From positions 34,906,001 through 34,970,000 of the forward strand of contig OZ024759.1 in the NCBI GenBank assembly GCA_964016885.1: a stretch of 64,000 bases of DNA, written 5' to 3'. The notes under the pieces were generated by a model that saw only the letters and a list, made by a program, of their open reading frames with translations, searched no databases and was not told the origin of the DNA. This document shows, one piece after another, positions 38,005 through 38,980 of this stretch. Both the position numbers and the translations under genes were made by a program. The first letter of the stretch is position 1; each line of letters opens with the position of its first letter. Source of the DNA: Eledone cirrhosa. Lineage: Eukaryota.

Positions 38005-38980
38005 CCTACAATTGTAAATTTTTAGAGGACTTTAACTTCATGTTTAGAGATGAAACATTAAAAAATATTTACTTCTATGCTATATTTCAATCAATATGGT
38101 CTCTGATCATCACCAGATGTCCTAGTCCTGGATATATACTTAGCACCGGACTGCTATAAACTCAGATCTATACTATGTATATATATCCAAGGAATATATT
38201 TGTTTTATCCATTCATATGTGTGATGATGATGATGATAATATCATTGATGGGTTTGCAGAACTCAAATGGCATGTCCAGGAGTTGTTGACAAACCTACTA
38301 CTACTATGGAACCTTCCGTTGTCAATATATGCCAGTGTCTTTGGACTTTCGTAGCTCCACTTGCCTGCTGAATCTTTTGTGGGGAACTCACAAGTTTCCT
38401 GATAAGATTATCAGCAGCAATGGCCACACCTCAGTCTCAAGGCTGTTCTTCTCTCAGGTCAGTCCAAAATGGACAAGAAAACTTTAAAATGACCTGAGAG
38501 AACAACTATGGACTGAACTCAGAGGAAGACTTTAGAGTCTAAAGTCTTCCTCTGAGTTCAGTCCATAGATCTCGGGTCAGTTTAAAGTTTAGATTGACTA
38601 GATAAGAACTTTGGACTGACCAGAGAGAACTTTGGACTGACCAGAGAGAAGAACTTTGGACTGACCAGAGAAAACTTTGGACTGACCAGAGAGAACTTTG
38701 GACTGACCAGAGAAAACTTTGGACTGACCTGAGAGAAGAACTTTGGACTGACCAGAGAGAAGAACTTTGGACTGACCTGAGAGAAGAACAGCCTGGTAGA
38801 TGTTACACCTGCTTTTCTATGAGGTGAGTCTTACGACCCCAAGTTTCTTGGGATCTCTGACACCTGGCTGAGGGCTAACGACCTTATTGATTGAAATGTA
38901 ACCATAGATGTAATTATTTAAATATTTCATCTGTAAAAGATTCAGTTATAAGTTCTCCATGCAAAAAATTATAATTTAGG
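38005..38980 (+). other. Nested inverted-repeat (dsRNA-forming) domain downstream of the ferritin-1 stop codon
   Basis: Imperfect arms 38005-38101/38880-38980; perfect 29-bp arms 38440-38468/38766-38794; perfect 31-bp palindrome 38506-38536/38538-38568 extended by 38480-38499/38570-38589; about 8 tandem 21-24 nt AGAACTTTGGACTGACCAGAG units at ~38604-38790. Confidence 0.85.

Follow-up and report, generated by a model that had tools for sequence, protein, structure and literature searches.

According to the accessible text of PMC6239182, transposon-derived dsRNA is prevalent in UTRs, and its regulatory impact is not fully understood. Repeats also carry most of the editing sites across animals, younger repeats being edited more and older ones being less editable (PMC9989829, in its available portion). 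Two described systems come close to the structure considered here. The first is that of the inverted Alu pairs (IRAlus) of human UTRs, which are gated by the choice of poly(A) site, as stated in the accessible part of 10.1101/2023.11.30.569399. The second comprises the repeat-derived 3′ UTR editing targets of cephalopods and other animals, as far as these are described in the available texts of PMC9068888, PMC9989829 and PMC6239182. The folded region downstream of the ferritin-1 gene of Eledone cirrhosa resembles the IRAlus in being repeat-derived dsRNA of a 3′ UTR that follows an alternative poly(A) signal. It differs from them in that it consists of one DNA-transposon-type element and a minisatellite instead of two SINEs, and in that its helices are shorter (the uninterrupted ones measure 30, 29 and 16 bp). 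With the animal editing targets it shares a transcribed repeat and a capacity for intramolecular pairing. The ferritin-1 UTR resembles these repeat-derived duplexes at the level of structure; its membership of a regulated class would be putative. Searches on octopus ferritin IREs, cephalopod editing, ferritin polyadenylation and octopus MITEs retrieved no paper on the ferritin-1 UTR, within a coverage that excludes most subscription journals.

The window, that is, the whole 64-kb stretch analysed, from contig C20 of the 3.0-Gb E. cirrhosa genome, carries two tandem ferritin genes (Table 1); two ferritins are likewise annotated in Octopus vulgaris and in Argonauta. Judging from protein comparison, the gene upstream of the folded region is a ferritin, its exon-2 peptide being 100% identical to the 'soma ferritin-like' protein of O. 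vulgaris and O. sinensis. The folded region lies ~150–1120 nt 3′ of its stop codon. An annotated O. sinensis isoform of this ferritin (X1, 201 aa) departs from the usual sequence where exon 3 ends, and the peptide of the last exon is missing from it. Intron 1 of the E. cirrhosa gene contains a tandem array of ~48-nt units (33930–35060). Other ferritin-like loci are found at C11:42354434-42354925, at 358.33 Mb of C1 and at 349.0 Mb and 269.2 Mb of C2, one such locus being intronless, with 45% identity.

Table 1. Features of the ferritin window and their positions
Feature	Position	Strand	Basis or remark
IRE-like stem-loop, ferritin-1 5′ UTR	31412..31442	+	G-A mismatch at loop-closing pair
Ferritin-1 coding span	31567..37858	+	four exons; ATG 31567, stop 37856-58
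Ferritin-1 exon boundaries	31671/35350, 35496/36185, 36310/37721	+	three GT..AG joints in one X4 contig
Proximal AATAAA	37928..37933	+	read through in run X4
Left arm of old palindromic MITE-like element (ends approximate)	37998..38160	+	family profile E 3e-32
Right arm of the element, inner piece (3′ half of first small hairpin)	38158..38197	-	reverse family match
Insert of 661 bp splitting the right arm	38198..38858	.	junction scan, genome searches
Weak hairpin	38268..38334	+	z -0.7; 285/1500 background windows as stable
Locus-unique hairpin, 16/17-nt arms	38361..38420	+	z -4.5; 5/1500; single genome match
Minisatellite, 21/24-nt units, orientation switches	38440..38794	.	gives 29-bp stem
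Perfect palindrome, 31-bp arms, 1-nt spacer	38506..38568	.	built of minisatellite units
Right arm of the element, outer piece	38859..38985	-	family alignment
Distal AATAAA	39112..39117	+	U/GU-rich tract after; candidate 3′ end
IRE-like stem, ferritin-2	47375-47405		loop closes normally; fold of expected shape
High-copy palindromic MITE-like element, 3′ of ferritin-2	63196-63455		2323 candidates in genome
Fold-back array with internal 54-nt repeats, 3′ of ferritin-2	63568-64050

Both paralogs carry a 5′ stem that is IRE-like by comparison with the general IRE consensus. In folding, the ferritin-1 stem has a 4-bp upper stem and an 8-nt loop, and the mismatch at its loop-closing pair, as against the expected shape in paralog 2, agrees with the earlier proposal that the IRE of ferritin-1 is weakened. 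Rfam gave no match at the gathering threshold in the whole window and no IRE match in E-value scans of the 5′ regions of both paralogs; since it scored an IRE in neither, it is uninformative on IRE strength.

Four public runs contain the stretch, none of them recorded as RNA, and run X4 is called RNA-like solely from its splice joints. Indeed, a 1504-nt X4 contig carries all three GT..AG joints of ferritin-1 and runs on to 38523, while the DNA-like run X1 has none of these joints. The folded region thus belongs to the spliced ferritin-1 mRNA, past the proximal AATAAA, as the earlier note had supposed in placing it in the 3′ UTR, between two such signals, both of which are present. An end of the transcripts at ~37950, named there as an objection, is at variance with the same contig, which crosses the proximal signal unbroken. 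The transcript evidence comes from one sample and from contigs, in which ends, isoform ratios and minority editing are not readable. Accordingly, the lack of any sign of a short isoform in X4 is to be read with the limit that contigs cannot show ends; the depths of the two X4 contigs, 21.5 and 20.9, are too similar to rank isoforms, and neither the X4 contig end at 39055 nor the absence of cover over 38716–38971 in X1–X3 can be taken to indicate an end or a gap. A processed pseudogene is an unlikely source of the spliced contig, given that X1 lacks the joints and that just one long ferritin match without introns exists, at 45% identity. An artefact of assembly was also dismissed, as DNA contigs equal 37571–38702 at 0 differences and X4 contigs match 38700–39055. 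The X4 contig extends ~78 nt 5′ of 31322 (31244–31400), past a TATA-like stretch near 31371, and some ferritin-1 transcripts may start further upstream than this stretch.

No majority editing is seen in the long X4 contigs, which show 0 differences from the genome over 37719–38523 and 38748–39055. One minority X4 contig, with a depth of 6.55, carries A>G at 38688, a position at which G occurs in no genomic minisatellite unit. The X4 sample differs from those of the DNA runs, and the change is consistent with editing; it could also be an allele or an error. As older repeats are less editable, according to the available portion of PMC9989829, the young inner stems would be likelier targets of editing.

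The outer stem derives from an old palindromic MITE-like element. Its arms (38005–38101 and 38880–38980) are 76% complementary over 104 columns, forming the imperfect stem described previously. Used as a query in genome searches, the left arm retrieved at least 14 other loci at 72–83% identity, and one of these relatives at least about 40. With a profile built from the family, inward-facing arm pairs were found at 19 of 38 loci, a count from which 15 own-locus or duplicate loci are excluded. The 15 pairs examined among these 19 span ~180 to 1400 nt, the compact ones ~180–385 nt, and have unrelated interiors. One family locus was met in 590 kb of genome samples and none in the reversed control, which suggests a family of thousands of copies, with wide uncertainty. 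Copies elsewhere are 70–83% identical, and the ferritin copy is ~20% diverged from the family majority. In the same profile searches, mirror-image matches with identical scores at 249.0 Mb and 248.1 Mb of C1 suggest an inverted segmental duplication ~0.9 Mb apart.

The likeness of the ferritin element to MITEs extends to its short, non-coding make-up (the empty element measures 327 nt and consists of two arms only), its long terminal inverted repeats, its many dispersed copies, for which the counts are lower bounds, and its folding into a single hairpin. It differs from them in its age and in the splitting of its right arm by a local insert; the ends of the 15 family pairs and of the ferritin copy are too decayed for a target-site duplication or the termini to be recovered. 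The alternative that the earlier note had entertained, a decayed fold-back transposon, is therefore correct for the outer stem, given the dispersed family and its arm pairs. Since the outer arms are a multicopy transposon, part of what that note held would speak against a control module applies. Its suggestion to determine the copy number gave a divided answer, the outer arms being multicopy and the searches giving no second copy of the insert.

The inner piece of the right arm (38158–38197) matches the inner family arm in reverse, a score equalled by 0 of 20000 background 55-mers. The junction scan sets the break at 38197/38859. When the insert is removed, the right arm aligns colinearly with the family: the joined arm scores 116, its two parts by themselves 79 and 39, and the HMM score rises from 12.5 to 32.9 bits on joining. 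The empty element then forms a single hairpin of -102 kcal/mol. This restoration of a colinear arm and a single hairpin implies that the outer stem and the first small hairpin are one object. The remaining hairpins lie in the insert, on the 3′ side of the element. Alternatively, the whole kilobase, interior included, may have been inserted as one fold-back transposon. The outer arms are indeed transposon-like, the genome has other fold-back elements with internal palindromic arrays (such as that at 63568–64050) and a unit that may be related to the inner one occurs on contig C7. In this case the interior would be expected between the arms; instead, it interrupts the right arm, it has no counterpart in the interiors of the 15 other arm pairs and the searches revealed no second copy, which makes insertion as a unit extremely improbable. 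Genome searches, which can miss very common words, gave no second copy of the insert, and its comparison with 724 kb of genomic loci and with the remainder of the window yielded no real match.

Within the insert, the minisatellite comprises, as assembled, 11 forward and 3 inverted units. The stem joining 38440–68 to 38766–94 is perfect over 29 bp and the palindrome over 31 bp (arms 38506–36 and 38538–68), both as previously reported, and these stems are pairings among minisatellite units. All 7 genome matches to the exact 18-nt unit pattern lie in the ferritin array. A locus-unique 20-nt minisatellite with the same forward/inverted/forward layout is present on contig C7 (~22,856,560–22,857,340; L120:965-1740); its unit is similar to the oldest of the ferritin units, and its own pattern has 11 matches, all at that site. 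The restriction of the unit pattern to the ferritin locus, together with the similar unit and identical layout on C7, points to local growth of the minisatellite. Decayed units were also sought in the rest of the insert and rejected, as 72/500 and 16/500 shuffles were as good. The accessible parts of PMC8794818 and PMC10710096 report that perfect arms around a minimal loop arise from neighbouring sequence through replication template switching. The ferritin palindrome has these same three properties, and differs from the reported cases in lying inside a minisatellite.

As template switching can create miRNA hairpins (PMC10710096, available portion), the palindrome, with the imperfect stems that extend it to ~50 bp, might be considered a young precursor of a miRNA or of hairpin endo-siRNAs. 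It is a perfect hairpin in a transcript, and there are sub-threshold Rfam matches to miRNA precursor models. We regard this reading as very improbable: the best Rfam score is 51 against a gathering threshold of 100 and indicates hairpin shape only, the 1-nt spacer contrasts with the preferred apical loops of at least 10 nt given in the accessible text of PMC10710096, and the unit pattern is found nowhere else in the genome, which leaves no perfect-match target.

All ten strings quoted in the earlier note were found in the window where its description needs them, and the check it proposed, folding against shuffled sequences, confirmed an unusually stable region: the fold of 38000–38985 has an energy of -370.4 kcal/mol (z -13.6), which none of 20 shuffles attained. 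Responsible for this signal are the inner array 38436–38800 (z -18.8) and the outer stem, whose duplex reaches -84 against -28 for shuffles. The smaller hairpins listed in the earlier note are all present; only the one at 38355–38426 is unusual (z -4.5): among 1500 GC-matched windows of the genome, 5 reach its stability. The remaining ones are unremarkable, being equalled by 134, 285 and 82 of these windows.

The genomic background, 59 evenly placed 10-kb samples amounting to 590 kb, puts these values in perspective. Seven of 119 random 986-nt tiles were as stable as the folded region, the folding having covered 119 of 590 tiles, several of the strongest being AT-repeat tiles. Inverted-repeat cover equal to that of the folded region occurs in 2/590 tiles, and cover of at least 200 nt in 43/590. 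Perfect inverted repeats form 64 clusters in the samples (arm lengths 25–216 bp); 50 of these clusters have arms of at least 29 bp, and in six of the 50 the spacer is 5 nt or less. The folded region is thus in the upper tail of the genome, yet of a common kind. With perfect inverted repeats at about one per 10 kb, shuffle z-scores say little about function in this genome.

A further possibility is that the transposon remnant has been co-opted, the choice of poly(A) site together with ADAR or Staufen-type binding tuning the output of ferritin-1 in place of its weakened IRE. The structure is carried by the spliced mRNA between two AATAAA signals, the IRE-like stem is weakened, and alternative polyadenylation controls the inclusion of inverted Alus in human mRNAs (10.1101/2023.11.30.569399, accessible part). 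The arms, moreover, are closer to each other than those of other family pairs: they share 6/78 departures from conserved family columns, against 0–3 in the 15 other pairs, a number reached by only 3/350 unrelated arm pairs. The ferritin arm duplex is also the most stable of 16 family pairs, and a genome search with the right arm alone yielded the left arm and nothing else. In a trimmed alignment, however, the shared departures fall to 2/61, so that the signal varies with the way of aligning. Resemblance between arms can result from selection, from copying of one arm onto the other, as in template switching, or from a subfamily, and since the pair was noticed because its pairing is good we weigh it lightly.

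Other signs of selection on the outer stem were sought. Its arms contain 5 G-U against 6 A-C oppositions, and its duplex energy is -84.1 on the sense strand against -84.5 on the antisense; neither comparison gives a sense-strand bias. The whole region folds somewhat better in the sense orientation (-371 against -343, with 26 G-U pairs against 16). A pattern scan of metagenomes for an orthologous UTR gave no match. Against co-option, besides the lack of strand bias in the outer stem, stand the X4 contig that crosses the proximal signal unbroken and the frequency of comparable stems in the genome; the single A>G, which could be taken in its favour, comes from the low-depth contig of a sample other than those of the DNA runs and could be an allele. 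Of the post-transcriptional control module put forward in the earlier note, the placement in the transcript between two AATAAA signals stands; evidence of a selected module was not obtained, there being no outer-stem bias and no majority editing. We consider co-option unlikely. The more specific proposal that an octopod ferritin paralog swapped IRE control for a co-opted transposon hairpin, its arms kept paired and its output set by editing or inclusion, is quite unlikely.

The folded region is a transposon remnant in a transcribed 3′ UTR, and probably gives neutral dsRNA and a passive ADAR substrate without a dedicated regulatory role. As the genome searches show, the arms belong to the dispersed inverted-repeat family, and the alignment shows a 327-nt hairpin, its right arm colinear with the family, once the insert is taken out. 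A short unit in the insert may then have grown by slippage and been flipped by replication template switching, yielding the perfect stems. With the region carried by the spliced mRNA, as the contigs show, its paired part would be modestly edited, like the other repeat-derived 3′ UTR duplexes of cephalopods, and the effect on mRNA export, stability or translation would be slight at most. Several observations go against the neutral reading, namely the 6/78 shared departures, the strongest duplex of 16, the sense-strand fold advantage, the right-arm search that yielded the left arm alone, inverted-repeat cover in the top 2/590 tiles and the fact that the element has lasted in the UTR of a gene for iron storage. 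We also count against it that it does not explain where the insert outside the minisatellite came from. The locus is a well-resolved case of palindromic transposons and local fold-back mutation placing dsRNA in octopus mRNAs, and as a convenient single-copy site for measuring the editing of repeats. Co-option, if true, would connect RNA editing in cephalopods with iron storage by a non-recoding route.

The earlier contention that nothing comparable exists in paralog 2 is not borne out by the DNA, as two long inverted repeats lie 3′ of ferritin-2 (Table 1). Both are located past four candidate poly(A) hexamers, and the contrast between the paralogs may hold for mRNAs, not for DNA. In the genome samples, the only cluster of perfect inverted repeats tested (L107:4940-5420) proved to be a young palindromic family with 1622 candidates, some copies being 100% identical over half of the query. 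Perfect inverted repeats, at about one per 10 kb, are potentially an abundant source of dsRNA in the genome.
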